Shown: piece after piece, positions 33,420 to 59,700 of the stretch
Position numbering within the stretch: the first letter of the stretch is position 1
Layout of the letters: each line of letters starts with the position of its first letter
From: Verrucomicrobiota bacterium
GTDB taxonomy: Bacteria > Verrucomicrobiota > Verrucomicrobiia > Limisphaerales > UBA8199
Assembly (NCBI GenBank): GCA_003176045.1
Contig: PSRM01000182.1
Span: forward strand, 11,298-75,297
Reading direction: 5' to 3'
DNA length: 64,000 nucleotides
Position numbers and translations under genes: made by a program
The notes under the pieces: model-generated
Seen by the model: the letters and a program-made list of their open reading frames with translations, nothing else
Databases searched by the model: none
What the model was told of the DNA's origin: nothing

Positions 33420-33473
33420 GCACATAGAGTCGAGCCTTTTACACAAAAATGGTTCCGGGAGCAAACCCAAAGC

Positions 33474-33556
33474 ATTTTAGATTTAGTCATTTTAGATTTT
33501 AGATTTACCGAAAAAGCCCGGGTCGGCTTCTTGCATCCAATCCAAAAACCAAAATC
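33474..33556. repeat. Heptamer arrays 3' of four-helix-bundle gene 1: (ATTTTAG)n, then TCCAA/CCAAAATC
   Basis: Directly visible; the outer array is the reverse complement of 33982-34013. Confidence 0.85.
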
Positions 33557-33557
33557 T

Positions 33558-33926
33558 TCAATGTAAATTAGCCTTTGCCGTGTTCAGTGAACTGCTGAAG
33601 ATGGCACAAAGCTCGTCCGCTTCTTTCCATAGCGGCTGAATTCGAGCAGGTTTCATGAGGCCGCTTTCCATTAGGACCTCCAGCCAGAAGGCGCTCTCGT
33701 CGGCTTCCTCAAGCACGGTCCCCATCTTGGCAATGAAATCCGCCTTTGATTTCGCACGGCAAACGGCGCGATAATTGGCGCCTACGGACGAACCAGCTTT
33801 CATTAGCTGATTCCCGATTACCTTTCCCGGCTCATTCCTCGGCAAGGCAAGCACGAGCTTGATAATTCGCAGTGCAAACTTCTTCGTTCTGGCTTTCATC
33901 TCTGTCTCATTCATAGGTTTTTTCAT
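33558..33926 (-). CDS. Four-helix-bundle protein (TIGR02436 / 23S rRNA IVP family)
   Basis: RTKKFAL, NQLMKAGSSVGANY, RAKSKADFIAK, EEADES.FWLE. Confidence 0.92.
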   Translation of the reverse strand: MKKPMNETEMKARTKKFALRIIKLVLALPRNEPGKVIGNQLMKAGSSVGANYRAVCRAKSKADFIAKMGTVLEEADESAFWLEVLMESGLMKPARIQPLWKEADELCAIFSSSLNTAKANLH

Positions 33927-34013
33927 TTTGGATGTTGGATTTTCTGCTCGCTAGCAAATCGCTAAACGCAGTTCTTTTTTCAATCTAAAATCTAAAATCT
34001 GCAATCTAAAATC
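33927..34013. repeat. Heptamer arrays 5' of four-helix-bundle gene 1: TTGGATG units and (AATCTAA)n
   Basis: AATCTAA AATCTAA AATCTGC AATCTAA abuts the stop codon of the upstream gene. Confidence 0.85.
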
Positions 34014-36218
34014 CTATCTCCCCTGCCTCAGTCTGGCCACTATCGCGAGCTGGGCGTTGGCGTCGTTGGTGCGGCCTTTGGTGAGGAGGGCGTAGGCCAG
34101 ATTCTCGCGGGCGGAGAGGTCGGTGGGGGCCAAATCCACCGCGATCCGGAGCTGATCAATGGCATCGTCCACGCGCCCAGCCGTGCCCAGGGCGATGCCG
34201 AGGTTGCGATGCGCGCCGGCAAAGTTGGGCATGAGTTTGACGGCTTGTTCTGAGTGATAAATGGACTCGTTAAGGCGGCCCTTCCGGAACAAGGCCAGGC
34301 CGAGGTTGCCGTGCGCGAGGGCGTAATCCGGGTCGGCGTCCACGGCGGCCTGGTATTCGCGGATGGCGTCGTCTTCGAGTTGGGAGATTTGGCTGCGCAA
34401 CCGGGCTTGTTCGGCGGGGGCAAGTGTTTTAGGCAGGAGAAGCCTGAAAGAGACAGCTTTTTGGTTGAGTTCGGCGGCGAGATTTTGGTGGGCGAGCGCA
34501 TTGTCGCGGGTGACGGCGATGGCGTGGCCATAGAGCCTAAAGGTGTCGTGCCAGACCTGTACCTGGCCGCGTGAGAGCACACAGCAGACGGAAAGAGCCG
34601 CGACAGCGAGAGCCCCGGGCGTGAAACGTGAAACGTAAAAGGGGAAAGGGGAAACGCGATGCGCCGAAGGATGCTGCGGGCCAGCAGAACCTTGAACTTT
34701 GAACCTTGAACCTCGAACTTTGAACTCAGCAAAAGTCCAAACGACGGCGATAAATATCCCAATAAGCGGTATATAAGTGTAGCGATCGGCGTGGGCCTGG
34801 GCTCCGACCTGAAGCAGGCCGATGACTGGCAGGAGGGTGATAATGTACCAGAGCCAGCCGACGGCAGACCACGGACCACATACCGCAGTCCAAAGGCCTC
34901 GATCATACGCTAACGGCGACCCCTGAACCTTGAACCTTGAACCTTGAACTTTGAACAGGATCCAAAAGGCCGCAATGGTCAGAAGCAGCCCAACCAAGCC
35001 GAAGGCGATTGTGAGCAAGAGAGAGAAGGTTTTTGGGTAGCTGTAAAAGACGGCGAGGCGCGCGGGCCACACGGTCTGGAAGAGGTACTCGAGGTAAGAG
35101 TGGATGGCGTTTTCGAAGCGATAGAGGACGGAATAACGGGCGCCGGTTTGAAGCGCGCCGGCTTGTTTCTGGGCGATGATGGTGACGATGCCGGCAGCGA
35201 AAGAAAGGGCGAAGAAGGGAAGCTTCTCTAAAACGAGACCACTGACCACTGACCACTGACCACCCCGCCAGCGCGGTTCTGAGCAAGAACTTTGAACCTT
35301 AAGCCTTGAACCTTGAACTTTGAGCTGACTTTCGGGCGCTGGGGGATCGAAACCTTGGACTTTGGACTTCTTGTCCGCCGAAGCTTTAGCGAAGGTGGAG
35401 GGACTTTGGACTCGGTTGAGCGGCCAAAAATCCAGCAGTAAAAGCACGAGTGGAAGAGTGACAAGCATGGTTTTGCACATCAGGCCGAGGGTGAAGAGTA
35501 AAAGGGCGCTGAGGTACCAGAGCAAAGGCCTCTGAAACTGGCGAATTAGGAGAAAACCTTGAACCTTGAACTTTGAACCTTGAACTTTGAACTCGCTCCA
35601 TCGCCCTTCGCCGCTCGCCACACAGTTCGAATATGCAAGCACAGTCAGAAGGAAGAACAACGTGGAGAGCGTGTCCTTCCGTTCGGCCGCCCATGCAACG
35701 GACTCGACGTGGAGGGGGTGGACCGCGAAAAAGGCGGCCACAAAAAAGGCAGGCCACGGCGGAGATGGAATGATGGAATGGTGGAATGATGGAATAGCGG
35801 ATGAAAGCTGAAGGAGGAGGAAGAAGAGTAATAGCGTGTTGCCGGCATGGAGCACGAGACTGGTGAGATGGTGGCCCCAGGCGGCCTGGCCGAAGAGTTG
35901 GCAATCGGTCATAATCGACAGCCAGGTGATGGGGTGCCAGAATCCACCTTGGAGAGTAGTAAACGCCCAGCGGAGATTGTCCCACGCAAGCCCGCTCAAG
36001 ACGTGGGGATTGCGGTAAATGTAGGTGGGGTCGTCGTAATTGACGAAGCCATTTCGGAACAGGGGCCAAAAAGTGCCGGCGGTCAGGAGCAACAGCAACA
36101 AAGCGAGGATCAGAGGATGCCCATCGCGGAACGGCTTCAAAAGCGACTTCAAAACGAGGGAGAGTTTAGCAGAAGCAGGAAACCGCGAAATGCGCGAAAT
36201 ACGCGGAACTGGAGACAC
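34014..36218 (-). CDS. TMTC-like (GT-C fold) integral membrane protein with C-terminal TPRs and numerous repeat-derived loop inserts (start uncertain)
   Basis: NYDDPTY, HPITWLS, HPLHVESVAW..ERKD, LEKLPF, ADRYTYIP, W.D...L, TPRs (AHGNLG, AHRNLG). Confidence 0.85.
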   Translation of the reverse strand: MSPVPRISRISRFPASAKLSLVLKSLLKPFRDGHPLILALLLLLLTAGTFWPLFRNGFVNYDDPTYIYRNPHVLSGLAWDNLRWAFTTLQGGFWHPITWLSIMTDCQLFGQAAWGHHLTSLVLHAGNTLLLFFLLLQLSSAIPSFHHSIIPSPPWPAFFVAAFFAVHPLHVESVAWAAERKDTLSTLFFLLTVLAYSNCVASGEGRWSEFKVQGSKFKVQGFLLIRQFQRPLLWYLSALLLFTLGLMCKTMLVTLPLVLLLLDFWPLNRVQSPSTFAKASADKKSKVQGFDPPAPESQLKVQGSRLKVQSSCSEPRWRGGQWSVVSGLVLEKLPFFALSFAAGIVTIIAQKQAGALQTGARYSVLYRFENAIHSYLEYLFQTVWPARLAVFYSYPKTFSLLLTIAFGLVGLLLTIAAFWILFKVQGSRFKVQGSPLAYDRGLWTAVCGPWSAVGWLWYIITLLPVIGLLQVGAQAHADRYTYIPLIGIFIAVVWTFAEFKVRGSRFKVQGSAGPQHPSAHRVSPFPFYVSRFTPGALAVAALSVCCVLSRGQVQVWHDTFRLYGHAIAVTRDNALAHQNLAAELNQKAVSFRLLLPKTLAPAEQARLRSQISQLEDDAIREYQAAVDADPDYALAHGNLGLALFRKGRLNESIYHSEQAVKLMPNFAGAHRNLGIALGTAGRVDDAIDQLRIAVDLAPTDLSARENLAYALLTKGRTNDANAQLAIVARLRQGR

Positions 36219-39282: not shown

Positions 39283-42164
39283 GGCGCGCGGTCCAAAGTC
39301 CAAAGTCCAAAGTCCAAAGTCCGAAGCCCGAAATCCGAAGCCCGAAATCCGAAGGGTCGAGCGTCGAGGGTCGAAGGTCGAGGGCGGAGACTACCTCGAT
39401 TCGTAGCAGCCGAGATAACGAGGCTCCAATTTTTTTCGGCCTGCTGGGTTAAAAAATAACAGAGCCTCGTTACCTCGGCTGCTACGTGGGGGGCGATCGA
39501 CGCTTGCTCCCGGCTGGCCGCTTGCTCACGCGCGCGGCTCTGTGCGCTGGCATTCTGCCGGCGAATAAGCTTCTGGACGCGGTGATTCTGCGAATCGGCG
39601 ACGTAGAGGTTTCCGGCGGAGTCCAGGGCGATGCCCCAGGGGTTGCTGAACTCGCCGGGTTCTGCGCCGGGATGGCCGATGATTTCGATCGGCTGATCGT
39701 TGGCATCGAAAATTTGGATCCGGCCGTTGCCAAACTCGCAGATGTACTGGCGCCCGGAGGAGTCCACGCAAATGTCGTAGGGATAGCTCAATTCGCCTTT
39801 GCCCGCGCCAGCTTTGCCGTAGGCGCGGAGGAACTTGCCGTCGCTGGAGAAGATCTGGATGCGATGGTTGCAGGAGTCGGCTACGTAAAGGCGGTCCTCT
39901 GAGTCCACGCAGATCCCCTCGGCGCGGTTGAATTCGCCAGGGCCGGTGCCGGGATGGCCGAGGGAGAGGAGGGGCGAGGGGCGAGGGGCGGGGGACGGAG
40001 GTGAAACGTGTTGCGTATTGCGTATTGCGTGTTGCGTATTAGCTGACGCCTGTTCCGGACTTTTCGTGTCTTTCGTGACTTTCGTGGTTTGTAGATCGAA
40101 TTTCTGTACGCGTTCGTTTTCGCCGTATTCACTGACAAACATTTCGCCGCGCGAATTGACGGCGACCGCGCGGGGCAACATGAATTGGCCGGGGCCGGTT
40201 CCGCGCTGGCCCCATTGGGCGACGAGTTTGCCGTCAGGCGAGAAATGGTTCACGCGCTGGTAATGCGGTTCGAGCACGATGATATTGCCGTCCGAATCGC
40301 GACACATGCCTTTGGGTTTGCCGAGGTCGGTTTGCGGCATTTGCCAGGAAAGGAGGAACGCGCCACTCGAAGAGAATTTTTGGACACGGCCGGTCATGTC
40401 GGCCACATAAAGATTGTCCTCGCGGTCAATGGCAACCGAACGCGGTTTGTTGAATTGACCCACACCGACGCCTCGCGAGCCAATGACTTCGACACGACTA
40501 AAGAGGCGGCTGCCGAGAGGGGTGGAGGCAGGGGACGAGGGGGAGCAGGAGGTAAGGGGGAGCGTGAGGAGCGTGAGGAGCGTGAGAGCGTGATGCGTGA
40601 AACATGAAACGTGAATCGTGAAATGTGACCCGATTTCGGCTTTTGGGCCTTGGACTGTGGACGGTGGACTGTGGACTGGCTTCCCCCTCGCCCCTCGACC
40701 CCCGACCCCCGGCCGGACTTTGGACACCACGGTCCACGCGATCAACGGCGCCAGCGCGAGGGCGAGCAGCGCCAGGCAAAGCGCGTTGACTTGTGCGTTG
40801 TGGCCGTAGTGGAGAAGGTTGAAGATGCGAAGGGACAGGGTTTCGCCGCCGGGCGGCACAACCAGGATCATCGTCTCAACGTCCCAGAGGCAGAGGAGGA
40901 ATATAATATACCAGGCCGCGGCCAGTTGGGGGCCGGTCTGCGGCCAATAGGCGTGCCGGAACATTTGGAGCCGTGAGGCGCCCTCGAGTCGGGCAGCGTC
41001 GGCGAGATCGCGGTCCACACTCGCGGTTGCGCTGGCCACGGCCGTCCAGCCCAAAGCCAGATAACGAATCACGAATGCCAGAATGACAATTCCGGCGCTC
41101 TGATAAAAGAAAGACGTCCAGGAGTGATTAAACAGATGAATGAGCGCCAGGCCGGTCAGAACGCCGGGGAGGAGGAAGGGAAGCCAGAGAAGAAGGCGGA
41201 AGAATGGGAGAGTGGGAGAGTGGGAGAGTGGGGGATGGAGCCGTCGGACCGATCGGGCCGGTTGGACAAATAGAGCAGAAAGAATAACTGCCGTAGCCGC
41301 GCTGGCCGCAAACCAGAACGAGTGGCCGAGCGCGTGCTGGCCACGGGCGGCGGCGAGGGCGCCGGGGAGTTCGGTCCAGGTGCGTTTCACTAGAATGAGC
41401 TGAAGCACGGGCAGGCCAACCGCAAAAAGACAGGTAGTGAGGGCAATAACACCGCTTGTCCAAAATAACGCGGGGCCAAGTTGACGTCGGATGAGGCGGG
41501 GCGAGACTGTTGGCTGAACGTGCGGCCAGGGGATGGAAGAGGGATTAAGATTAAGAGAAAGATTACGATTAAGATTAAGAAGAAGAAAAAGGAGCAATGG
41601 ACCCAGAACCAGCGGCAGGCTCATGAGCAGCACACCCCATGTGTCGAAGGTGGTATTGAACCGGACCCACATTTCTGCGGGAAACACTTTGACCTGAAGG
41701 ATGGCTGGCACAGCAAAGTTGTTGAGCGCCAAAACGAAAGTGAGAGTCGCGGCGATCACGATGGCGTTTCTGGCAAGGGGCACGAGGAGGCCGCGCAGCA
41801 AGTTCCAACCTGTGACAGCCATGTCGCTTTCAAGTTGGGCAGGTTCGAGTCGCTGCCAGGCCGCGCACGCCGCAAAAGTGGCAATGGGCCAAAGCAGGAG
41901 TGCGAGAATCCAGGCTGCCCCACCGAGGGAAAAAATGTTTAGCGGAACCCAGCGGCGCCATGCGCCGGTATCGCCGAGGAAATGAAGCCAGCAATTGGTC
42001 GCAACGAATGGCGGCGTGGCCAGAGCGATTACGGCCAGAACCAGAAACAGCGCCCGCCATCGTCGGGGCAAGCCGGCAAGCCAGAGCGCTACTGCCAGAC
42101 CGATACCAACGGCGAGCACGGTGGCGAGCAGGCTGACGAGGACGCTGTTTTTTAAAAGGAGCAA
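39279..42164 (-). CDS. Fe3+/thiamine-type ABC permease (FbpB-like, two TM modules) fused to an NHL-repeat beta-propeller
   Basis: DAARLEGA EAA-like motif, PGVLTG, PPGGETL; then FNKPRSVA, LSYPYDI, FSNPWGIA, YVADSQNHRVQK NHL repeats. Confidence 0.85.
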   Translation of the reverse strand: MLLLKNSVLVSLLATVLAVGIGLAVALWLAGLPRRWRALFLVLAVIALATPPFVATNCWLHFLGDTGAWRRWVPLNIFSLGGAAWILALLLWPIATFAACAAWQRLEPAQLESDMAVTGWNLLRGLLVPLARNAIVIAATLTFVLALNNFAVPAILQVKVFPAEMWVRFNTTFDTWGVLLMSLPLVLGPLLLFLLLNLNRNLSLNLNPSSIPWPHVQPTVSPRLIRRQLGPALFWTSGVIALTTCLFAVGLPVLQLILVKRTWTELPGALAAARGQHALGHSFWFAASAATAVILSALFVQPARSVRRLHPPLSHSPTLPFFRLLLWLPFLLPGVLTGLALIHLFNHSWTSFFYQSAGIVILAFVIRYLALGWTAVASATASVDRDLADAARLEGASRLQMFRHAYWPQTGPQLAAAWYIIFLLCLWDVETMILVVPPGGETLSLRIFNLLHYGHNAQVNALCLALLALALAPLIAWTVVSKVRPGVGGRGARGKPVHSPPSTVQGPKAEIGSHFTIHVSCFTHHALTLLTLLTLPLTSCSPSSPASTPLGSRLFSRVEVIGSRGVGVGQFNKPRSVAIDREDNLYVADMTGRVQKFSSSGAFLLSWQMPQTDLGKPKGMCRDSDGNIIVLEPHYQRVNHFSPDGKLVAQWGQRGTGPGQFMLPRAVAVNSRGEMFVSEYGENERVQKFDLQTTKVTKDTKSPEQASANTQHAIRNTQHVSPPSPAPRPSPLLSLGHPGTGPGEFNRAEGICVDSEDRLYVADSCNHRIQIFSSDGKFLRAYGKAGAGKGELSYPYDICVDSSGRQYICEFGNGRIQIFDANDQPIEIIGHPGAEPGEFSNPWGIALDSAGNLYVADSQNHRVQKLIRRQNASAQSRAREQAASREQASIAPHVAAEVTRLCYFLTQQAEKNWSLVISAATNRGSLRPRPSTLDARPFGFRASDFGLRTLDFGLWTLDRAP

Positions 42165-43656: not shown

Positions 43657-43685
43657 CGTAAATCATAAATCATAAATCATAAATT
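43657..43685. repeat. (CATAAAT)4 heptamer array just after the BatA-gene stop
   Basis: Directly visible; reverse complement of 42170-42201. Confidence 0.85.
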
Positions 43686-45541: not shown

Positions 45542-45584
45542 GTCAGACCGGTCGGACCGGTCGGACCGGTCGGACCGGTCGGAC
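45542..45584. repeat. (GTCGGACCG) 9-mer tandem array, about 5 units
   Basis: Directly visible between DUF58 and BatA genes. Confidence 0.9.
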
Positions 45585-46579: not shown

Positions 46580-46770
46580 TCTTGCTCTTAATCTTTTCTC
46601 TTACTCTTAATCTTAATCTTAATCTACGAAGTCACGAGTTTTACGCAGGAAAGGATTAAGATTAAGAGAAAGATTAAGATTAAGAATCTACGGCCAGCTC
46701 CCAAATTAACCAACCAGCCCATTCACCCATTTAACTCATTTAACCTATTTAACTTATTTAACTTATTTAA
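46580..46770. repeat. Inverted hexamer arrays (TCTTAA)n / (GATTAA)n around a 28-nt spacer, plus an ATTTAAC-based 9-mer array
   Basis: 46580-46625 versus 46654-46685; 9-mers at 46727-46770. Confidence 0.85.
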
Positions 46771-47768
46771 CTAGTCAGTACCGCCGCATCTCGGGGCACA
46801 TCCTTCAGCACCTGCGCGATGATATGATCGGTCGTGATCCCCTCAGCTTCGGCTTCGAAGTTGAGAATAAGCCGGTGGCGCAGGGCGGAAGGAGCGACGG
46901 CTTCGATATCATCAAAGCTGACGTTGAACCGGCCATCAATCAGGGCGCGGACTTTGCCGGCCAGGATAAGGGTTTGGGCGCCGCGCGGGCTGCTGCCGAA
47001 GCGCAGGTATTGCGAGGCGATTGGAGCGGCGGTGTCCGTGCGCGGATGTGTGGCCAGAACCAGGCGCACGGCGTAATCTTTCACGTGCGAGGCAACCGGC
47101 ACTTCGCGCACCAGGTCCATCAACTGCATAAGCGTGCCCCCGTCGAGCACTTTGCTGACCTGCGCCCGCACACCGGCAGTGGTGCGTGTGAGCACTTCGG
47201 TCAACTCCTCCGCGTTTGGGTAGCCAACCAGGATTTTGAAAAAGAAACGGTCCAATTGTGCTTCGGGTAACGGATAAGTGCCTTCCTGATCAATAGGATT
47301 CTGCGTGGCCATCACGAAGAAAGGCTCGGCCAGTTTGCGCAATTCACCGCCGGCAGTGACCTGATGCTCCTGCATGGCTTCGAGCAACGCAGACTGGGTT
47401 TTCGGGGTGGCACGATTGATTTCGTCGGACAAAACCAAGTGGGCAAAAATGGGGCCGCGTTGAAACTGGAACTCGCGCCTGCCACCGGGGATTTCCATTA
47501 CTATGTTCGTGCCGAGAATGTCCGCAGGCATGAGATCCGGCGTGAACTGAATGCGGCTAAAGGACAGGTCGAGCACTTCGCTGAGCGTCCGAATCAAAAG
47601 CGTTTTACCCAGGCCCGGCACGCCTTCGAGCAGCACATGCCCGCCGGCAAACAGCGCGATGAGCGTCCCTTCGACAATTCCCTCGTGGCCAACAATCACT
47701 TTGCCGATTTCAGATCGGAGAGTTGCGTAAGCGGTGCGGAAGGATTGGATTTGTTCTTCAGTAGTCAT
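46767..47768 (-). CDS. moxR: MoxR-family AAA+ ATPase
   Basis: HVLLEGVPGLGKT, RIQFTPDLMPAD, DEINRA.PKTQSALLEAM, ATQNP, YPLPEAQLDRF, SPRG. Start set at ATG 47768. Confidence 0.95.
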   Translation of the reverse strand: MTTEEQIQSFRTAYATLRSEIGKVIVGHEGIVEGTLIALFAGGHVLLEGVPGLGKTLLIRTLSEVLDLSFSRIQFTPDLMPADILGTNIVMEIPGGRREFQFQRGPIFAHLVLSDEINRATPKTQSALLEAMQEHQVTAGGELRKLAEPFFVMATQNPIDQEGTYPLPEAQLDRFFFKILVGYPNAEELTEVLTRTTAGVRAQVSKVLDGGTLMQLMDLVREVPVASHVKDYAVRLVLATHPRTDTAAPIASQYLRFGSSPRGAQTLILAGKVRALIDGRFNVSFDDIEAVAPSALRHRLILNFEAEAEGITTDHIIAQVLKDVPRDAAVLTS

Positions 47769-47782
47769 TTGCGCCGGCGGCC

Positions 47783-47814
47783 GTTGAAGGTTGAAAGTTA
47801 AAAGTTGAAGGTTG
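47783..47814. repeat. (GTTGAAG)n heptamer array 3' of four-helix-bundle gene 2
   Basis: GTTGAAG GTTGAAA GTTAAAA GTTGAAG GTTG. Confidence 0.85.
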
Positions 47815-47822
47815 GTCAACCG

Positions 47823-48221
47823 TTACCGTTGGCGTGAAAGGCGCCTGGCATTCGTTCGAACCCTTTCCAGATAGTCTATGAACTTAGCTATTCGACGTGA
47901 CAGGGTCAGGCATGATTCACGCAGCGCCTCGAATTTTTTCTGGTCAATGTACTGCTGGTCTAGTGCAACGTAGAGTTGGGATCGGACTTCGCCATTTGAA
48001 CCTTTGGCGATGTTCAGGAAATGAATGAATTCTTTGCGAGTCCCGCGTTCGAAGCCCTCTGCGATGTTCGACATGGTCGAAGTGGAGGCGCGGATAATTT
48101 GATCTTTCAGCGTGAAATCGCGACGAAATAATCGCTCCTTCGTTATGTCGTAAATACGGTTTACTAAAACGCGCGCTTCCTGCCAAACCTTCAGATCTTC
48201 GAATTGTTTTGCCGTAGCCAT
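47823..48221 (-). CDS. Four-helix-bundle protein (TIGR02436 / 23S rRNA IVP family)
   Basis: FEDLKVWQEA, LKDQI.RA..S.MSNIAEGFER, EFIHFLNIAKGS.GEVRSQL. Confidence 0.93.
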   Translation of the reverse strand: MATAKQFEDLKVWQEARVLVNRIYDITKERLFRRDFTLKDQIIRASTSTMSNIAEGFERGTRKEFIHFLNIAKGSNGEVRSQLYVALDQQYIDQKKFEALRESCLTLSRRIAKFIDYLERVRTNARRLSRQR

Positions 48222-48385
48222 AGATTTTTATCCTCGTTAAATGTTTGTCGTATTTGTCGTATTTGTTCAGTAGGAGTGAATGAAATGAGTGTTGAATTTG
48301 CAATCTTAAGTTTATTCAACCAAGCCATTAACCTGCCTTCAGCCAAGAGGCGTTTGCGCAGACCTCAGACTCGACAAACGGAATG

Positions 48386-48417
48386 AACCTTCAACCTGTA
48401 ACCTTCAACTTTCAACT
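48386..48417. repeat. (AACCTTC)n heptamer array 5' of four-helix-bundle gene 2
   Basis: AACCTTC AACCTGT AACCTTC AACTTTC, 3 nt from the upstream stop; inverted relative to 47783-47814. Confidence 0.85.
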
Positions 48418-48420
48418 AGA

Positions 48421-50391
48421 TCATTTTTTCAAATCATCAAAGTAGTCCTTCACCGCTCCCTGATATGCTCGCGGCACTTTCTCCTCGGTCAGCGCACTCT
48501 GGGCGTCGGACTGGGCGGCGGCGGCCGCTTCCTCGTAAGCGATATTGCTCTGGCCTTTGATGCTCACGCCACGCAAGGTGATGCTCGGCATGGGCGCGCC
48601 TGGCGAGAACTGGCCTTTGACCTTGGTCGGCATGAGTTTGTCGGTGGGGCTGGTTGGGCGGTCGGTGTGGCCGCGTGGGTCAACATTCGGGCGCACGGCG
48701 CCGGTATTGTCCCAGGCATCATTCTGGACTCCGTCCCACGTGTGGCCTTCTTCGGCCCATGTGCCGACGCCGCCACCCAGCCCGCTGCCTTTGGTTGGAC
48801 CGCTGCCCGGGTTATTGCACTGCCCCCAGCCTTTGCACTCGCTGATGCACATGGCCGCCTTATTCATGGCATCGAGCGTGGCCATCAATTCCTGGGCGTC
48901 ACCCATTTGCTGAGCGAGTTCTCCCAATTTTTTGGCTGCAGAAGCGAGTGACTGCGCGGCACCCGATTTGTCGCCGGCCTGGCCTTGCTTGCAGGCCTGC
49001 TGCAGGTCCTTCGCCACGTCGCCATAATGGCCCGCAGGTGGAATGGCTTTTGAAACTTCCTCCATCATTTTCTGCAGTTGCTCCTGGGTAAGGCCCGAAG
49101 ACTTTAATTGTTCCACCATCTTGGTCAGAGTCTGCTGGGCCTGCTCGGGCTGCCCTTTTTGTAGTTGCTCGGCCAGGTCCTTGCCCAACTTGTCCATTTG
49201 CTGTTGGAGCTGTTGGAGGGACTTGGCCATGTCCTTCATCTTATCGAGGTCCTTAACGGCAGTCTGAATATCCTTGAGAAACTGGTCGGGCTGACTGTTC
49301 TCCAGGGCCTTGATGGCGTCCTCCAACTGCGGCATTTGCATCCCCATCTGTTGCGCTTCCTTCGACAGAGCGGAAAGGGCTTCTGAAAGTTTTTGTTTCT
49401 CGCCCTCGCCGGCGGCGGCGCCTTTATCGGCCAAGTCTTTGGCGGCTTGTTGAACCTTTTGCAGGTCCTTTTTGAGTTTGTCGAGCGCTTCGGGATTACC
49501 GGTAGGAGAGCCAAGCTGCTTCTGTAGCGATTCAATTTGCTTTTGCAATCCGCCGGCGGTTTGAGTGTCGTTCGGGCTTGTGCCACGGGCTGCCTGTTCG
49601 AGTTTGTTGAGGGCCGGATCTTTGGCCATTTCCTTGATCTGCTCCTTCAGCTTCTCAGCCACATTCGCCAGGTCTTTGAGCGCCTCGGTTCGGGTGAGGG
49701 AAGTTTTGGTGAACCGGTCGCCCAACTCGCCGACTGCCTGCATGGCTTTCTGAGTCGGCGGCAGGGCCGTCGGGCGCTTCTCGATGTCGCGCCGCACGAG
49801 TTCGGCCAGATTTTTGCCCGCTTCTTTGATTGATTTCTGTTCCTTTTGTTTTTGCAGGTAGCTCTTGCTGCGATACTCCGGGACAAAACCCAGCCCAACA
49901 CACAGCGCCAGCAACAGAAATGCCCAACGCGCCGCGCCCGGCAGACTCAACGGGAGCAGCTTTCTGGGATCCAGAGCTTTGGAATGTGCCGCGGCATCCG
50001 TGACCACCAGGTCGCTCCATCCTGATGGAGCGCGGACAGCCTGTCCGTGCGCACCGCTGGCTGGGCCAGCTTCCTCGGCGGCAATCTCCAACGCCGTGCT
50101 CAACCGCTCCTTTAGCTGTTGCTTGTTATCCACCCAACGGGCCACTTCTTTTAACGATGGTTTTCGCCACCCTCCTACGATCAAGCCAAAGGCCATCGCG
50201 ACAAACGGCGCGACCAATGCAGCCACAGGCACCCAAAGCGGCAGCGGCCACAAATGAAATGCCCCCGCCATCAGTAGCGCGGCGAGCGCCCCAAAGAGCA
50301 ACCCCTTCCACATCCCTTGCAACGCCTTCGCCCATCGCCGCCGCCGTCCGGCCCGACGGAGTGCCAATTCAATAGTTTGTAACTCGCTCAT
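48421..50391 (-). CDS. Membrane-anchored Q/K-rich coiled-coil protein of the MoxR operon (DUF4175-like)
   Basis: Two N-terminal TMs, LKERLSTALE, long heptad region, Gly-rich linker, VPRAYQGAVKDYF C-terminus. Start set at ATG 50391. Confidence 0.8.
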   Translation of the reverse strand: MSELQTIELALRRAGRRRRWAKALQGMWKGLLFGALAALLMAGAFHLWPLPLWVPVAALVAPFVAMAFGLIVGGWRKPSLKEVARWVDNKQQLKERLSTALEIAAEEAGPASGAHGQAVRAPSGWSDLVVTDAAAHSKALDPRKLLPLSLPGAARWAFLLLALCVGLGFVPEYRSKSYLQKQKEQKSIKEAGKNLAELVRRDIEKRPTALPPTQKAMQAVGELGDRFTKTSLTRTEALKDLANVAEKLKEQIKEMAKDPALNKLEQAARGTSPNDTQTAGGLQKQIESLQKQLGSPTGNPEALDKLKKDLQKVQQAAKDLADKGAAAGEGEKQKLSEALSALSKEAQQMGMQMPQLEDAIKALENSQPDQFLKDIQTAVKDLDKMKDMAKSLQQLQQQMDKLGKDLAEQLQKGQPEQAQQTLTKMVEQLKSSGLTQEQLQKMMEEVSKAIPPAGHYGDVAKDLQQACKQGQAGDKSGAAQSLASAAKKLGELAQQMGDAQELMATLDAMNKAAMCISECKGWGQCNNPGSGPTKGSGLGGGVGTWAEEGHTWDGVQNDAWDNTGAVRPNVDPRGHTDRPTSPTDKLMPTKVKGQFSPGAPMPSITLRGVSIKGQSNIAYEEAAAAAQSDAQSALTEEKVPRAYQGAVKDYFDDLKK

Positions 50392-50584
50392 AAATACTCC
50401 CTCAATCCGGCTCTTAATCTTTCTCTTAATCCTAATCTTAATCCCTCCCACAAAACTGCGCCATCCACCTCCATTTGGCTAGTGCTAATTCATTTGACCG
50501 CGGAAGCGCCAAAATGTTCCGCGGATTTGCGCCCTTAGCCGGAATAATTTTCCCGGCTGATAGTCCCCTGCGCCAGACGGCCCA

Positions 50585-50723: not shown

Positions 50724-53700
50724 TTATGGACTCAACCGCGCCCGGTAGAAGCGCCGGGGGACGCGGCCATTGGTATCCACAAGGATGACCGTATTATTCG
50801 TGAGGGTGAGGCTCGTCAGAGTGGTCCAGGTTTGAAAGTTGGTCGAGGTGAGGACGTCGTAGTGCGAGCCAGGCGCGCCCGAGAGTGTGAATTGGAACCC
50901 GCCGTTTGTGCGGAACGCAACGCTGCCTGGCACGAAAGAAGGCGTGGACGAGGCGAAGGCCAGGTGGAAAACCAAGTTGCCAGTGTGCGCCGCGTAACCT
51001 CCGGCCAGGATGCGGTAAGTAGTTGCTGTGCTGACGGCCAGGGTGATCTGCGAATTGATTCCGCCAGCATCATCGTTGCACGCCACCTCTGTCAAAGCGC
51101 CACAAGCACCCGTGTAAATAGCCAGGCCCGTGTCGAAATCGCTCCCAAATGTATCCACCGTAAGCAGCCCCGCTGATGGCGTGGCGAACTGGTACCAAAC
51201 CCCATTTCCAAACCCCGGCACGCACGACGGCGCTGGATCGCTGGTGGAGCTCGCGTAGGTGGTGGATTGCTGATTGGCGTAACTGGAACTGGCGATCACG
51301 ATTGCACCGGCGCATTGGTCGTTGGCCAGGGTGGTAGTCACCTTGAGGATCGCGTTTGAGCTGAGCGCAAAGCCGTATGCGTTTGTGACCAGGCAACTGA
51401 ACAGGCTGCCGGAGTCCGAAAGTTGCGCGTTATTAAACGTATAGCTGGAGTTGGTTGTGCCGCTGATCGGTGCTCCATTGCGCCGCCAGCCATATACGAA
51501 CGGCGTCGTGCCCGCAGCCGAAACGCTGAACGTAGCCGCCGCCCCTATCGAAACTGTCTGCCCCGCAGGTTGGGCAACAATACTCGGTGCGGACGGGTTG
51601 ACAACGATCCTCATCGTGGCTGTGTTGGCCCAACCATTTGTATCGCTTAGGCCAACGGTGAAGGAATTGGTCCCGAGGTTCGCCGTCAGTGGTGTGCCCG
51701 AGAGCGAACCGTCGCCGGCTACGTTCAACCAGGCCGGACCGCTGACCTTCGCGAATGAAAGCGTGTCTCCTGCGGGCGCGACCGCGTCGGCCAGAAGCGA
51801 ACTGGCATACGCCGAGGCATCACTCGCTGCCGCTTCGGTGAATGGGTTGCGGATGAATGTCGGCACAGTCAGACTGAAGACGGTATCGAATCCGACTCCC
51901 AAACCTCCGATTCCCGCCGTCGTTCCGTAAAACCGGCCATCGGAAGCTTGCACCATCCTCGTTCCCGGTCCCCACCCGTTTATGCCTTCAAACCAAACGA
52001 TGCTCGTCAGCGTCCCGCCTGGCGTCAGCTTAAAAACCGTCCCTCCGCCGCCCAACCCGCCCGAGTAAGTCGTGCCATAAAAATTGCTATCGGCCCCCTG
52101 CACCAGGCCGCCCGCCTGCGTGCCGTTGCTGGTGGAATCGAATGAGATCAATGTGCTCAACGCGCCATTGGTGGCCATGCGAAACAGCGTTCCGTATCCG
52201 TAGGCGCCGCCGTAAAAGGTGCTGCCGTAAAGGTAGCCATCGCTGGCGGCGAGCAGTCGGCCCACCGGAGTCGCGCCATTAGTGCCGTAAAAGGTTGCAC
52301 GAATCGTGAACAGACCGTTGGTTGTCAGGCTGAACACCGCGCCCGAGCCGCTTGTTCCACCTTCCGAAGTTGTGCCGTACAAAATCCCCCCTGGGCCCTG
52401 AACCAGCCCTGCCTGCGGGTAGCTGCCGCTGGTCGAATAATCGAAATTCACGAGGGTGGTCAGGACACCGCCCGGGGTAAGCCTGAAAGCTGTTCCGTAC
52501 CCGTTGGCGCCTCCGGCATAGGTCACTCCATAAAAGTTGCCGTCTGGCGCCTGCATCAATTCTCTCGCATAAGCCCCTTTGCCGTAAGAATCAAACGTGA
52601 ACACCGTCGCCAGCGAACCGTTGGCCGTCATCCGGAATACGGTCCCGTAGCCCCCAGGAGTACTTTGGGTAACCCCATAAAGATTGCCATCCGCGCCGAC
52701 GATTAGCCCCGCTTCAGGATTAGCCCCGTTTGTAAAATCAAACGACACCATCGTCGTCAGCGCGCCGGCTTTGGTCAGCCGGAAAACCGTTCCAGAGCCG
52801 TGGCCTCCGTAGAAGGTGGTGCCATAGAGATTGCCATCGGGGCCTTCGACCAGTGGACTCTGCACAAAGTTACCCTCGGTGTTCGGATCAAAAGTGTGCA
52901 ATTCGCTGAACGCTGTCCCGGCGATATTCACCGGAATGATCGCAAGCACGGCATCATCGCTCAGCACATCGCCCAGATCGTCCGAGACCAACACCGAGTA
53001 AACGCCGCCATCGGCCGCATGAGCCGCGGCAATGACCAACTCGCTATCCTGCGAGCCGCTAATATTGGCGTTGTCGGTCAGGTTTGTGCCGTCGTGTAGC
53101 CACTGGTAATAAAGCGGGAAATCGCCCTCTGCCTCGACCAAGAAACGGGCCGTTAAGCCATCCAAAACGCTCTGGTCGGCGGGTTGCGTCACAATAATCG
53201 GCGGCGAAACAATCACCTGCAAAAAGGCCGCGGCGCTGGTAACGCTCATGGAATTATTACTCACGACGACTTGATACAGGCCGGCATTGGCCGGAGTGAC
53301 ACTGGTGAATTTGAGCGCGGTTGTGTGCGCGCCGGCCATGTTGCCGCTATCCACCAGGTTCGTCCCGCGAGTGCGCCAATGAAAATTCATCGGCAGCGTC
53401 CCGAACGCCGCCACGTCCAGGGCCACATCTTCGCCGGCGAAGGCCGTGATATTGGCGGGTTGCGAAATGATTTGCAGCGGGGCACTTATGCCGACCTTGA
53501 AGACAACCCCGTTACCCAGTGGGCCGCCGTAGTTAGCGACACCATAAAGGTTGGCATCGGCAGCCTGGACCAGCCGCCCCCACGGGCCCGAGCCATTGTA
53601 GCCGTCGAACTGCACCATCCACGCAAAGGCCCCATTGGGCGCAATGCGGAACAGGACGCCTTGGCCGTAACGACCGCCGCTCGGAGTTGTTCCGTAGAAA

Positions 53701-56700
53701 TTCCCATCATTGCCTTGGATCAGCTCGGAGAATGGATTTGCTCCGTCAGGGTCCCCAGCAAACGAATAGAGCGTCGTCAGCTTGCCATGCGGCGTGACTT
53801 TGAAAACGGTACCGTAGCCGTTGGTTCCCCCGCCCCCGGCCATCCCGTAGAAATCGCCATCAGCGCCTTTGGTGAGTCCAGCGTATGGGTTCGCTCCATT
53901 GTCATAATCGAACAGCGCAAGAGTCGTCAGCGCACCGTTGGTGGAGATTTTGAACACAGTCCCATTTTCGTTGGTTCCGCCTAAAGGCGTGGTGCCATAA
54001 AGGTAACCATCGCTGCCCTGAACCAGGTCGCAATTGGGAGAGGTGCCGTGCGCATCGTCCCCGAAAGAAAACAATGTTGTCAGGACCCCGTTGGTCGTCA
54101 TTTTGAACACGGTTCCGTACCCGTTAGTTCCCCCGTAAGACGTGGTCCCGTAGAAATAACCATCAAAACCCTGGATCACGCCGGCACCCGGTTGCGCGCC
54201 GTTATTATAATTAAACGAGAACAGTGTGCTCAGGGTGCCATTGGTGGAGAGGCGGAACACCGTCCCGCCATCGTGAGCTCCGCCGTAATAGGTTGTTCCG
54301 TAGAGGTATCCATCGGCGGCCTGCATCAGGCTCGGCGACGGGTAGGCTCCATTTGTAGAGTAGTCAAAAGAAACCAAAATGGCCGGCGTTCCATTGGTGG
54401 TCATCCGGAAAATCCCTCCATAACCGAAGGTGCCGCCGTTGTCGGCTGTGCCGTACAAGTACCCATCCGAAGCCTGAAACAAGCCCACTGGGTTAAACAC
54501 GTTGTTCGTGAAATCAAAAGCCGCCAATGCAGTCTCGGTAACTCCTGGAGCGGTGAAAGGCACCACTGTCAGCACGGCATTTGAGCTGAGGGTAGGCCCG
54601 ACGCTGTTGCTTACCAGGCAACTAAACTGGCCGCCGGATTCTGCCAGCGGCACGTTATTGGTCGTGTAGAAAGATTGCGTTGCGCCGGCGATGGGCGTGC
54701 CATTGTGACGCCATTGATAAGTTAGCGGCAGCGCACCATAAGCCGTCACGCTAAAACTGGCTGTTCCGCCCACGGGAATGGTTTGGCTGTTAGGCCCGTA
54801 AACGACGGTGGGCCCCCCAAGGTAGGCGTTGAGATGGAAGACCAGATTTCCGCTTTCCCCATTGTAGCCAGCCGCCAGAATACTATAGGTCACACCATTG
54901 GTAACCTGTAGGGAGATGGCCGAACCGGACCCACTGCAGGTTACCGGACTCAGGGCTCCGCACGAGCCGGTATAGAGTCCGAGCACGGTATTGAAACTGC
55001 TCCCACTCGTATCAAGGATAAGCTGTCCATTAAGCGGCGGCGTGTATTGGAACCAAACACCCTTGCCCGGATTGTACACGCAGGGCGGCTGCGGGTCGCC
55101 AATCGAGGTAGCGCCGATGGTGGATTCATTGGTGGTGAAGAAGGGGCTGGTAATAACTGTTGCGTTGGCGCACAAATCATTGTTGGCGAAGGCAACGTGC
55201 AGCGCGAGATTCCCGGTTTGTCCGTTGTACCCTCCGGCGCGAATGAAATAGGTCGTGCCCGTGTTCACCGGAACGGTAACACCCGAATTGAGACTGCCAT
55301 CCCCGGCATCGTCATTGCAGGCCAATTCCGTCAAAGTCCCGCAGGTCCCGTTATACACCGCCAGGGCTGTGTCGAAATCGCTGCCCGCGCTATCTATGCT
55401 GATGGTCTGGCTCACGGGTGCAGTGTACTGGAACCAAACGCCACTGCCAAAACTGCTCACGCACGAGGGCGTCGGGTTGCCGGAGGGCGCGCCGAGGGTT
55501 GATTCATTCGTCGAATACGGCAAGGAGGCGATGAGGGTCGCGCCCGCGCAATTGGTGTTGGCCGGGGGCAGCACGACTGTCAGGACCGCATTTGAACTGA
55601 GCAGCGTCCCCAGGGCGTTGCTCACCAGGCAACTGAACTGTGCGCCCGAATCGGCGAGCTGCATGTTGTTGGTGCTGTAACTGGATTGTGTCGCACCGCT
55701 GATAGTCGAGCCATTCCGGCGCCAGAAGTAGCTCAAAGGCGCGCTGCCGCCTGCGCTGATGCTGAAGTTGGCCGTCGCCCCGGCAAGCAATGTTTGGTTC
55801 AGTGGCTGAGAAACGATCACCGGCGGTCCGCTCGTGTATATTAATGGCACCCGCACGATCGTTCCGTTGCCAACTTTAACGTCATAAAGATCGTAGCCCT
55901 GTCCTCCAAAATTCGCCGTGCTGTAAAGATTTCCATCCCGCGCCACCATCAGCCCGCCATAGCCCCCGTCGCCATTGGTGCCCGACAGAGAAAACAGGCT
56001 GGTAATAGCGCCGCTGCTGGTGATCCGATAAACCGTGCCGTAGCCGGCCGCGCCTCCCTCGTATGTCGTGCCGTAGAACGCTCCATCCGGACCAGTCGCC
56101 AGGCCGCCAAACGGATAAAACCCGTTGACTCCATCAAACGAGTATAAGCTCGTCAGTGTTCCGCCTGGAGTGACTTGGAAAACTGTCCCCACGTAGTTCG
56201 AGCCGCCGTCGTAGGTGGTCCCGTAGAAATTGCCATCCGTGCCGCGGGCCAGGGTGGAGTAAGGATGGGACCCGTTGCTTTGATTGAATGAAACCAGCGT
56301 GGTGAGGACGCCATTCGTGCTGATCCGGTACACGGTGCCGTAGGCGTCCGCGCCGCCAGAATAAGTGGTTCCATAAAAGTAGCCGTCACCCCCATAGACC
56401 AGCCCGCCATAAGGAGAATAGCCGCTGCTGCCGCTGGAACTGAATGAGGCCAATGTCGTCAGATGCCCATCGGGCGTCATTCTGAATATGGAGCCATAGC
56501 TGTAATTTGCCCCGCCACTAACGCTGGTACCGTAAAAATTGCCATCCGGTCCAAGGGTCAACCCCGCATACGGAGCATTGTTCTGGAAACCCAACGAAAC
56601 TAGCGTTGTAAAAGAGGCCAGCGCAGCGGGCCCCTTGGTGGTAAATCTGAAAATGGTCCCGACACCTGTATCGGCAAACAACATATTGTCAGGAAAGTAG

Positions 56701-59700
56701 GAGGCTGTATCGGCACCATAGAGGCCGATGCCGCCCCCAAAGGTTGTCCCATAGAGGGCGCCATCCGGCCCCTGCGTCAATGCGCCATACGGAGCGCTTC
56801 CATTGGTGCCTGCAAAAGAGAACAGCGTTGTGCGCACGCCATTGGTCGTTAGACTGAACAGTGTGCCATGTCCGTAATCACCGCCGTAAGGAGTTGTGCC
56901 ATAAAAGTTGCCATCGCTGGCTTGAAATAGCGGGGCAGTAGGCCAACTGCCATCCATGCCGCTGAATTCGTAGAAGGGGCCGGGGTCCGATGAGGCAGTC
57001 ACGTTTAGAATTGCGTCCGAACTCAGGAGCGAACCGAGGGCATTACTTACCAGGCAACTGAACCGCGCGCCGGAATCGGATGGCTGTATGTTCGTAACCG
57101 TCAGGCTGGACTGCGTGGCCCCCGCCATGGGAACGCCGTTGCGCATCCAGGTGTAATTCACGGGCGCGGAGGACACGGCCCGGACGATGAAATTGGCGGG
57201 GCCGCCCTGGGGCGCAATTCGATTTTTAGGCTCGGAAGTTATAGCAGGCGGCGAGGCGGAAGACGGCGGCCCGAACGCCAGGCGAAACAAGAGCCCATCC
57301 CCGCTGGCATAGCCATTGGCGTATCCATTGAAATCCGTCCCACCCCAAGGTGTTGTGCCATAGATATTTCCATCTCTGCCCAGCGTCAAAGCTGTTTGGG
57401 GCCAAACACCATTGTATCCCGCCAGGCTCAAGCGCGACGTCAGTACCCCATTGGTGGTTATCCCGAAGATCGCGCCATCATACAACAGGCCCCCTGCAAG
57501 CGCGGTTCCGTACAAGATGCCATCGGTGCCCTGGACCAACCCGGCCAGAGGCCAAAATCCGGTGGGGGAAATCCCGAACAAATATCTGGGCGGCACGAAG
57601 ACATCATCGCCTCCGAATGGGAAGAAACTGGTAATCACCCCGCCGGGAGTCATGCGGAACACCGTGGAACCAGTAAAGCCCGACTCGGTTGTCCCATAGA
57701 AATTGCCATCGGCAGCCAGCAGCAAGCCTCTCGGGCGAGAGCCGTTGCCACCGTTAAACGACACCAGTGATGTCATCGTCCCGTTCGTACTGATCTTGAA
57801 AATCGTGCCGAAGTCATTGGCTCCGCCGGAATCGGTCGTGCCGTATAAACTACCGTCCGCGCCCTGCACCAATCCGCCACGGGGATAGATGCCATTGGTG
57901 CCGTGGAATGAAGCTACCAGCGTCAGCAAGCCATTGGTGGTCACTTTGAAGATGGTCCCCTGGTCGCTTGCTCCGCCGACAATCGCTTCGCCATACAAAC
58001 CGCCATCGAGACCTTGAACCAGGTTTCCTGAAGGATTGGCTCCCGTCGAAAAGTCCAGCGAAGCCAACACGCTAAATACGCCATTAACCGAGATTCGGAA
58101 GATAGCTCCAAAGCCGTTGGCGCCACCCTCGTAAGTCGTGCCGTAGAGATTTCCGTCGCTCGCCTGGACTAGGTTGCCCATCGGATAAAGCCCATTGGTG
58201 TATGCCTGAAAATTGAAGAGCGTGCTGACTGCGCCATTGGTAGTCATTTTGAAGATCGTGCCCAAACCGGCTGGTCCTCCAGAAAAGGTTGTGCCGTAAA
58301 AGTTGCCATCATTAGCCTGAATCAGCCCGGCCAACGGGCTGGAGCCGTCGCCCCCATTGAAAGAGTAAAGAACCGTGTCAAAAATCAGCCGGGCAGGCGC
58401 GCTGGTGACCGAGCCCGAAAGGTTGCTGATCACACAATTGTAAAGGCCGACATCCGCGGCTTGCGAGGATAAGACAGTATAACTGCTGGTCGTCGCGCCC
58501 GAAATGGCTGCGCTCCCGCGCTGCCACTGGTAGTGTAAGGGCATGGCCCCGAGCGCGTCCACGCTGAACATGGCCTTCTGGCCTGCCGTGCGCATCGTGT
58601 CCTGCGGTTGGCTGACAATGGACGGCGGACCAACGAATGGGAAGAACGAGAGTTGGAAAACAAGGTTGCCGCTCGAGGCGTAGCCGCCAGACGAGCCGCC
58701 CCACCCTCCGGCCTCGATATAGTAAGTCGTGCCTGCGGCCACAGAGTTGGTCAGCCGCGAGAAGACGAATCCGCCGCTATCCGATACACCTGCAAACGCA
58801 TTGCAACCCGCTTCGTTCAATGCGCCACAACCGCCCGTCCAGAGCCCCAGCCCCGTGTTGAAATCACTGCCAGCCGTGTCCAGGACCAGTCGCCCGTTCG
58901 ATGGGGCCGTCCATTGGAACCAGACCCCTTTGCCAAATTCGTAAACACAGGATGGCGCCGGGCCATTATAAGGGGCGTCCACCGTGGATTCGGCAGTGCT
59001 GTAACTGGAGCCCGCAATGATGGTCGCGCCGGCACAGGTGCTGTTGCTGAAAATGGTCAGGGTGGCATTGGAACTAAGCAGTGTCCCCTGCACATTGCTG
59101 ACTAAGCAGCTAAACTGCGCCCCGCTGTCGGCGATCTGCGCGTTCGCCAATGAGTAGCTCGATCCTGTCGCCCCGGCAATGGGTGCGCCATCTCGACGCC
59201 AGGCATAACTGATCGAGGCCGAGCCGAAAGCGCTCAGATTAAAACTCGCCGTGTTGCCCGGCAGGACGCGCTGGCTGACCGGTTGGATGTTAATGGCCAG
59301 AGGCGTCCGGCCCGCCAGATTGGTCAGGGCCGGATAGGCCATCACAATGCCTGCGCCGCTATCCCGATCGACTCCCGAGGCGCCGATGTCCACCGCGTTG
59401 GTGGTGAGTAGCGCCCGCATCTGGCTGGTGGTCAAAGCCGGGTTGTAGCTCCAGATCAGCGCCGCCAGGCCTCCCGCATGAGGCGCGGCTGCTGACGTCC
59501 CGTAAAACGGGTTCAGCCCGGAGCCCGACGGCAGAGTCGTGGCCACTCCATCCGCTGCGGTGATGTCCGGCTTTTGACGGACGGCGCCGCCGCTATTGGT
59601 AAAGTTGCCCGGGGTGATCGCGGTGCCATCAGCCTGAAAAAAGACGTGCCGCGGGCCGTCCGAGCTGAAGATCTCGACCTGGTTATTGGTTCCGAAGGGA

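Follow-up and report, generated by a model that had tools for sequence, protein, structure and literature searches.

The closest described counterparts of the locus reported here are the intervening sequences (IVSs) of bacterial 23S rRNA genes and, concerning its repeats, the heptanucleotide tandem repeats of bacteria, which are known in cyanobacteria as STRRs. According to the available text of PMC4990558, the IVS of Coxiella measures 428-444 nt, has terminal inverted repeats forming a 28-bp stem with an S23p ORF in the loop, shows a GC content below that of the genome and is cut by RNase III halfway along the stem; the IVSs of Leptospira and other bacteria are reported there to behave in the same way. 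For the heptamers, the accessible part of PMC4692102 gives 70-75 convergent pairs of GGGAATC arrays in Xanthomonas and connects them with no gene family, and TAACTGA repeats are listed among such bacterial repeats in the portion of PMC4679880 at hand. We describe positions 47,783 to 48,417 of a window of 64,000 nt (contig PSRM01000182.1; GCA_003176045.1) from a Limisphaerales genome (G000; 7.74 Mb, 372 contigs, 57% GC, 86% complete), where a PF05635 gene stands between two matched tandem arrays in the spacer that separates an ORF of 676 aa from moxR. As its anatomy matches that of an IVS but the host is an mRNA, we consider it probable that this is a self-contained stem-loop cassette with a guest gene, co-oriented in a spacer of the moxR (bat-type) operon, i.e. 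an intercistronic counterpart of the IVS.

All parts of the locus are read on the minus strand. The upstream host gene (48421..50451), for which the profile search gave no confident Pfam family, ends with a TGA stop at 48423-48421, and 4 nt (TCTA) separate it from the 5' arm (48386..48417), composed of about 4.5 units of GTTGAAR (GTTGAAA GTTGAAG GTTACAG GTTGAAG GTT). An AT-rich leader of 164 nt (48222..48385), which holds (TTTGTCGTA)x2.6 at 48244-48266 of the plus strand and measures about 20-70 nt in the orthologs, extends to the ATG of the guest gene (47823..48221; stop TAA), encoding a 132-aa four-helix-bundle protein of PF05635/TIGR02436 with an Avd-like fold. The 3' arm (47783..47814), reading (CTTCAAC)n, starts 8-9 nt past the guest stop, has the sequence AACCTTCAAC TTTTAAC TTTCAAC CTTCAAC and ends 14 nt before the ATG (47768) of moxR (46767..47768; AAA_3 ATPase, 333 aa). 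Tandem Repeats Finder (TRF) reports this arm as an array of period 7 with 4.6 copies at 47783-47814, that is, intergenic head-to-tail heptamers. The GC content varies from 0.42 to 0.48 in the cassette and from 0.55 to 0.66 in the flanking genes. A preliminary description of this DNA had noted (GTTGAAG)n past the upstream stop, its complement before moxR and a gene richer in AT than the operon; the bracket is confirmed by the sequence, TRF, the inverted-repeat search and the folds, the composition agrees with our GC values, and only the gap after the stop must be corrected from 3 to 4 nt. A 3003-nt contig from a public DNA run, possibly the source sample, covers 47608-49300 without differences, and no cassette-free form was found in that one run; among RNA runs, none was found to contain the stretch.

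The arms form a stem of about 30 bp that closes off the entire insert. By inverted-repeat search they comprise 31 nt each (47783-47813 and 48386-48416) and are 87% complementary. Both the minimum free energy and the centroid folds of the 671-nt transcript pair the two arrays with each other, and for 27 of its first 70 positions the probability of pairing with the 3' end is above 0.9. In each of the five orthologous inserts the fold contains 29-46 long-range pairs, with 27-39 positions paired at P>0.9. As to why the arms are tandem arrays, it could be speculated that repeats allow pairing in multiple registers and coordinated slippage that would keep both arms matched.

The 132-aa protein has significant hits to PF05635 (122.8 bits, cut-off 33.8; E 8.6e-36) and to TIGR02436, 'four helix bundle protein' (119.8 bits, cut-off 24; E 5.9e-35). 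Its AF2 model is a four-helix bundle with pLDDT of 94.4, for which Foldseek returned 2gsc (Xanthomonas XCC0516; TM 0.79/0.89; phmmer E 6.7e-10), 2rld (Bacteroides BT_0352; TM 0.72/0.87) and bAvd (4dwl, also 8ub7 and related entries; TM 0.73 by query and 0.89 by target, rmsd 1.7, about 10% identity). The PDB entries 2gsc and 2rld each list 5 chains, and the Xanthomonas protein is called a homopentamer in the available text of PMC4990558. Since synonymous divergence among the orthologous guests is saturated (pS 0.78-0.86) while pN is 0.16-0.34, the coding sequences indicate that the protein is under purifying selection; the copy of genome G001, which lacks the conserved NIAEG segment, may be decaying. 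The second PF05635 protein of the window (33558-33926) aligns with 12% identity, in line with the clear divergence stated in the preliminary description. Its gene lies in another minus-strand cassette (33474..34013), bordered by ATTTTAG/CTAAAAT arrays at 33474-33506 and 33982-34013, with arms of 17 nt that are 100% complementary.

Some variation in domain composition was observed within the family. A subset of the PF05635 proteins of this genome (L002, L003, L004, L005, L007 and L008; alignment columns ~170-200) has a C-terminal extension with a motif close to L-[RH]-E-[DE]-x(3-4)-Y, which the 132-aa protein does not have. Two loci, L001 (G000:C235:7350-8081) and L006 (G000:C365:22231-22947), contain two tandem PF05635 domains in one bracket of 12-nt units, one of them as a 243-aa fusion and the other with a TGA between the domains.

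In 23 genomes, all from the same family or order, we took the best MoxR locus and located the end of the ortholog of the upstream gene; the closest moxR loci found are from Limisphaerales, phylum Verrucomicrobiota. A PF05635 gene is present in the spacer in 5 of the 23 (G000, G003, G002, G001 and G020). G011 retains a remnant of 275 nt that has arrays at either side and preserves the first ~16 guest codons (MATAKRFEDLRVWQN...), and in G022 (L135) the junction is occupied by a gene-less hairpin of 153 nt made of CGCAGAT-type arrays. Units similar to those of G022 (CGCAGATGAA) flank PF13366 genes in other genomes, e.g. at L184 and L179. The junction is not syntenic in 4 genomes, and in the other 12 the spacer of -4 to 151 nt has no guest gene, the tight ones being an ATGA overlap in G006, G009 and G015 and a 1-nt spacer in G021 and G012. 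Neither of two additional Limisphaerales metagenome-assembled genomes (MAGs) has an insert, their spacers measuring 20 and 178 nt and containing few arrays. Orthologs of the upstream ORF in relatives adjoin or overlap moxR, and the ancestral junction was likely a translationally coupled gene pair; it seems unlikely that the ATGA overlap was re-created by deletion. The junction, otherwise tightly coupled, contains the insert in some genomes and not in others; moxR operons without it, which the preliminary description had proposed to look for, do exist.

The sequences of the arms at this site differ among the carriers. In a guest tree of 47 rows, G000 and G003 group together (99/91), G002 joins them at 90/80, and G020 groups with G001 (99/96). 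The arms read GTTGAAG/CTTCAAC in G000 and GTTGCAG/CTGCAAC in G002, the units of the orthologous cassettes being GTTGAAG, GTTGAAA/GTTGCAG and GTTGCAG, with GTTATCAG and GTTTTCAA in the sister clade, where G001 and G020 both have arms of period 8, the left one resembling GTTATCAG and the right one CCTGACAA. For arms left unselected, by taking fixed windows of 60 nt after the stop and before the ATG, own pairs reach -43 to -58 kcal/mol, and crossing arms between the period-7 and the period-8 groups yields only about -22 to -25 kcal/mol. Complementarity between the two arms is preserved through drift in their sequence and even in their period. As synonymous sites are saturated, unconstrained non-coding arms should by now be non-repetitive and unmatched.

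Short tandem arrays are extremely frequent throughout the genome: merging leaves 5,724 of them, a density of about one per 1.35 kb, and 2,477 have period 7, so the bracket could be an accident. Under such an explanation slippage fills the spacers, and matching arms are a coincidence or the product of functionless local copying. The arrays found in every spacer of the moxR operon would agree with it, as would the equal numbers of inverted and direct same-unit pairs at 300-800 nt (59 each). We searched for brackets as at least 5 inverted 10-mers common to both 350-nt flanks of a gene. They were found at all 18 PF05635 loci of the genome (21 Pfam matches), compared with 27 of 1903 control ORFs of 100-250 aa (1.4%) and 61 of 2915 ORFs of at least 300 aa (2.1%), and the same is true for the 8 loci of a second guest family described below. 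An all-versus-all matrix of arm duplexes placed the true 3' arm as best partner in 25 of 26 cassettes, the exception preferring the arm of its recent duplicate; as these arms were pre-selected by the repeat search, which biases the figure, it is the 10-mer control that carries weight. Left and right arms match beyond chance, which was one of the two points on which the preliminary description had staked its reading. Considering also the complementarity kept by the ortholog arms despite saturation, the empty orthologous sites with no or few arrays and the same design on cyanobacterial and Riemerella plasmids, a mere by-product of an array-rich genome is very improbable.

The units at the PF05635 loci are diverse: GTTGAAG, ATTTTAG, GTGTCAT, GGACAGA, GGGTTCA, ATAGCCA, CGTGTTG, CGTGAAA (twice), AAACACC, GTGAATA, ATTTATG, TCTTAA, GGAATAAT, GTTAAATGA and two 12-mers. 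At 11 of the 18 loci the period is 7 in both arms, the remaining ones showing 6, 8, 9 or 12. As to the position relative to the host genes, a co-oriented upstream neighbor whose stop is at most ~40 nt from the 5' arm (mostly 0-15 nt) is present in 15 of the 17 loci with a defined neighbor. Downstream, the neighbor is either co-oriented, placing the cassette within an operon, or convergent, placing it at the end of the transcription unit.

By inspecting the content of inverted array pairs, a second guest family was found, PF13366 (PDDEXK_3). The 8 matches in the genome are all bracketed by inverted tandem arrays (C71:33169-33519; C265:52089-52436; C240:6049-6402; C40:39935-40282; C336:3523-3855; C35:5246-5590; C90:8361-8672; C352:19110-19223), and at 6 of them there is also a co-oriented upstream neighbor with a nearby stop. 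Their arrays have periods of 8-15, never 7, so that none of the 8 loci has a period of 7 in both arms, against 11 of 18 for PF05635 (Fisher p=0.007, the loci not being independent). PF13366 is present in 25 of 31 related genomes. For the relatives, the null was built by swapping arm partners between loci, with the 99th percentile as threshold, and it was exceeded by 18 of 28 PF13366 loci and by 13 of 28 PF05635 loci. The cassette design thus holds for an unrelated family of small proteins.

Evidence that the gene is passed on and duplicated together with its arms, as a single unit, comes from contig C51, where a host gene has a cassette on either side (C51a and C51b). Over 591 nt the identity of the two is 80.7%; their common unit is CGTGAAA, and the homology reaches to the outer limits of these arrays and no further. 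Other protein clades also have common unit families, for instance the CAGAGGN clade in the tree, although the sister proteins of G014 and G009 have unlike units. Beyond Verrucomicrobiota, a tblastn search against plasmids recovered 18 records, in Nostoc, Calothrix, Anabaena, Pseudanabaena, Picosynechococcus, Geminocystis and Riemerella. Inverted tandem arrays surround 7 of the 8 copies examined (Cyanobacteriota and Bacteroidota), between co-oriented genes, with the units GGGAAAA, GGTTTAA/GGTTCAA, AGGTGAC, AGCTTTT, GGAGTCA, GGAGATAA and GGGAAAA/GGGAAGA; the copy on the plasmid of Calothrix PCC 7716 has no bracket. Three bracketed PF05635 cassettes (L158, L159 and L161, on plasmids of Anabaena sp. 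90, Pseudanabaena galeata and Picosynechococcus PCC 7003) are within CRISPR-cas operons, two between cas6 and cas4 and one between cas10 and cmr3. The clearest evidence of recent and precise insertion into stop-start spacers is given by the Nostoc plasmids pNsp_c and pNPUN02, which have a common operon 86-92% identical and different PF05635 cassettes, with different units and in different spacers: the site that holds a cassette in one plasmid reads stop-GTT-start (TAG GTT ATG) in the other. The same design is present in at least three phyla.

With the 18 loci of this genome, the relatives above the null and the plasmid copies, the independent replication of the architecture claimed in the preliminary description is supported. 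Its suggestion that each lineage has its own matched unit was partly right: the unit travels with the cassette lineage, as in the moxR orthologs, the CAGAGGN clade and C51a/C51b, but cassette units are also found in 1 to 316 other arrays of the genome. Likewise, the proposed comparison of protein tree and repeat unit gave related units within clades, with the pair G014/G009 departing from this. The interpretation was largely right and is supported in part, its error being the conservation of period 7, which is only the mode and changes to 8 among the orthologs at the moxR site itself.

The tracking of protein clades by unit families raises the question of whether protein and repeat are a cognate pair, in which the Avd-like protein recognises its own unit, the arms serve as operator or packaging site, and the dispersed arrays represent a regulon or non-autonomous derivatives. 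The difference of period between guest families could be taken in its favor, as could the high abundance ranks of the cassette units in the genome (1, 2, 6, 9, 11, 13 and 14), the match of the modelled fold with bAvd in ribonucleoprotein structures of diversity-generating retroelements (DGRs), and the purifying selection on the guest. Co-segregation alone, however, is no proof of matching, since it follows from common descent, and an abundance-weighted draw gives the same overlap with abundant units. The recurrence of cassette units elsewhere, including 0 to 103 short-loop hairpins, is also expected from chance draws on a small vocabulary. Clade tracking, period difference and abundance are all explicable by common descent and that small vocabulary. 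Together with the same architecture around PF13366, an unrelated family with nuclease fold, and with the unlike units of the G014/G009 sisters, this makes a cognate pair unlikely in our view.

Another possibility is that of a mobile element acting at the DNA level, whose inverted arrays would be the ends of a non-autonomous, MITE- or REPIN-like cassette, with an enzyme in trans recognising DNA hairpins or cruciforms and the RNA stem as a by-product. As regards mobility, this is compatible with an intercistronic IVS. It would account for the duplicated C51 unit stopping exactly at the array edges and for sites that are cleanly filled or empty in Limisphaerales and Nostoc plasmids. The 2,477 period-7 arrays use only 156 canonical heptamers, the commonest (CGTGAAA) in 316 arrays, which suggests copying rather than de novo slippage; same-unit pairs with loops of up to 200 nt are more often inverted (316) than direct (70); and there are five Y1_Tnp matches in the genome. 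On the other hand, the cassette ends vary in sequence and period, which makes a sequence-specific transposase unlikely, none of the Y1 genes is flanked by tandem arrays, and DNA hairpins alone do not explain co-orientation and placement after a stop. We hold this explanation as a tentative one, possible but not the one we favor.

A further explanation for a stem in this position would be a terminator, attenuator or mRNA-stabilising hairpin of the host, a REP-like element in which the gene is a passenger. Short-loop array hairpins are indeed abundant between genes, one of them in the moxR-DUF58 spacer (46586-46685), and G022 has its gene-less array hairpin at the very junction studied here. Yet the terminator scan found no terminator-like site with a T-run at the cassette, the ancestral junction is tight or overlapping and free of hairpins, and the arms are co-inherited with the guest gene and not with the host site. 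A host hairpin seems quite improbable under these observations.

Returning to the cassette as an intercistronic IVS, its way of life may be outlined as follows. The guest would be transcribed from the host promoter within the operon transcript, and the stem of arrays could then be cut by RNase III, by analogy with rRNA IVSs, releasing the guest; an RNase III gene is present in the genome (G000:C179:9076-9465). Alternatively to cleavage, the stem would reduce the distance between the host stop and the moxR start to within ~20 nt. In both cases polar damage to genes that were formerly coupled would be limited, and the outcome for the host might be beneficial or neutral. As DNA, the cassette would spread into stop-start spacers using machinery supplied in trans.

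Several observations weigh against this reading. The fold energy of the whole insert is ordinary (z = -0.65), only the terminal stem standing out. A scan restricted to the sigma-70 consensus returned neither a sigma-70-like promoter nor an intrinsic terminator within the cassette or next to it, so an internal promoter may exist. Among the relatives, 15 of 28 PF05635 loci do not exceed the swapped-partner null, which makes the bracket common but not universal. Carriers and empty sites are interleaved in the MoxR tree, with G020 outside the main group, and this tree, in which 14 of 22 inner branches are open, cannot order gains and losses; being so poorly resolved, it does not separate one ancient insertion followed by losses from repeated gain or transfer. 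Target-site duplications are not visible at the filled and empty junctions of the moxR site and the Nostoc plasmids, an absence that also counts against a DNA-level element. No candidate for the mobilising enzyme was found, the sole RVT_1 match being below the cut-off (26.2 bits versus 29.6) in this 86% complete genome and the Y1 genes having no flanking arrays. Finally, the six-frame translated loops of 258 short-loop array hairpins gave no PF05635- or PF13366-like match at E<=0.01, so that an origin of the hairpins by recent decay of cassettes has no support in this genome. The correlation of array density in 4-kb moxR loci with family copy number over 23 genomes (rho 0.43, p 0.04) is confounded by the cassettes' own arrays, and we do not rely on it.

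The surroundings of the cassette are also rich in arrays. Downstream of moxR there are a DUF58 gene and then a BatA/VWA gene, according to Pfam matches, and all intergenic spacers of this operon hold arrays (46586-46625/46654-46685, 46729-46772, 45542-45584 and 43659-43684). The moxR-DUF58 spacer contains the gene-less TCTTAA/GATTAA hairpin, whose unit is that of the PF05635 cassette on contig C178, followed by (ATTTAACTT)x4.9; further arrays along the operon are (GTCGGACCG)x4.8 and (TAAATCA)x3.7. Directly upstream of the operon a single ORF of 3,642 aa is found (50724-61652, minus strand). The Rfam scan of the window gave zero matches, and that of 20 loci from relatives only tRNA. Elsewhere in the genome, conserved repeated DNA inside array brackets was observed at G000:C245:9246-9585 and G000:C337:40447-41299; it is alike in all frames (...RNAPHSKRFA...) and is probably a non-coding dispersed repeat.

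Arrays also affect the gene calls. Long minus-strand ORFs of the window (31518-33470, 34014-36218 and 39279-42164) run through several arrays, and under a longest-ORF rule 1,829 of the 5,724 arrays are inside ORFs of at least 250 aa. Many of these ORFs are probably N-terminal over-extensions through arrays that have no stops in one frame. Because assemblies are broken by arrays and spurious ORFs are lengthened by them, genes called in genomes of this kind should be treated with care, and the pattern bears on how operon structure is read in Verrucomicrobiota and Cyanobacteria.

The locus is a meeting point of three loose ends, namely the function of S23p proteins, the excess of intergenic heptamers and the small genes that interrupt operons, those of CRISPR-cas included. 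There appears to be a rule, seen in three phyla, that the guest is at the tip of a matched-array stem directly past a host stop; if true, elements of IVS type would be a general, low-damage way for small genes to inhabit host transcripts. A broader and rather doubtful extension is that stem-loops colonising both rRNA and mRNA form a pan-bacterial class whose gene-bearing members are the PF05635 and PF13366 cassettes, the heptamer arrays and hairpins of Verrucomicrobiota, Cyanobacteria, Bacteroidota and Xanthomonas being arms, footprints or gene-less derivatives, with each protein recognising its own unit. Should it be correct, it would give a cause for the heptamer excess and a function for the 'S23p' family.

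Among known systems, the four-helix bundle of the modelled guest resembles Avd of DGRs (4dwl, 8ub7), but there is no adjacent reverse transcriptase and no template or variable repeat. Given that host operon genes surround the guest and that the only RVT_1 match in the 86% of the genome that is assembled stays below the cut-off, we discarded a DGR or retroelement identity. REP/REPIN-RAYT systems similarly have short extragenic hairpins by the hundreds, several repeat families and a gene on whose two sides the same repeats stand in inverted orientation, but here the guest is PF05635 instead of a Y1 (IS200-like) transposase and the repeats are tandem arrays; a RAYT/REP identity was rejected as the Y1_Tnp genes of this genome have no flanking tandem arrays. 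Nor does the cassette show the hallmarks of a MITE or a transposon with terminal inverted repeats, as no target-site duplication is visible and the arms differ among the 18 copies.

The PF05635 family, the rRNA IVSs and the excess of heptamer repeats were already known separately. We found no description of matched-array brackets around PF05635 or PF13366, or of IVS-like operon cassettes, in the searchable literature, and curated family descriptions or supplements may mention them; with this caveat, the link between cassette and repeat appears to be new. As in the heptanucleotide repeats described in bacteria, the arrays are intergenic tandem heptamers of a small vocabulary, with inverted arrays able to form stem-loops. 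Such repeats occur in Cyanobacteria, Bacteroidetes and Xanthomonas, the last also being the source of the PF05635 structure 2gsc. In the available texts of those reports they are unlinked to PF05635, PF13366 or IVS-like cassettes, whereas here the arrays bracket a specific guest gene.

The closest likeness is with the 23S rRNA IVSs of Leptospira and Coxiella. As far as the available accounts of these go, both have a PF05635/S23p guest, with the ORF in the loop of an inverted-repeat stem of ~28-31 bp, and both measure ~0.4-0.65 kb, have a GC content below that of the host, are sporadic among relatives and ride on the host transcript. Excision by RNase III, shown for the IVS, would apply to the cassette by analogy. 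Unlike the IVSs, which are in helix 9, 25 or 45 of the rRNA and have unique inverted repeats, the cassette is in the stop-start spacer of a protein-coding operon, from the 676-aa ORF to moxR, its arms are tandem arrays of 6-12-nt units, and the design is present in 18 copies in this genome, with arms that differ from one copy to another.

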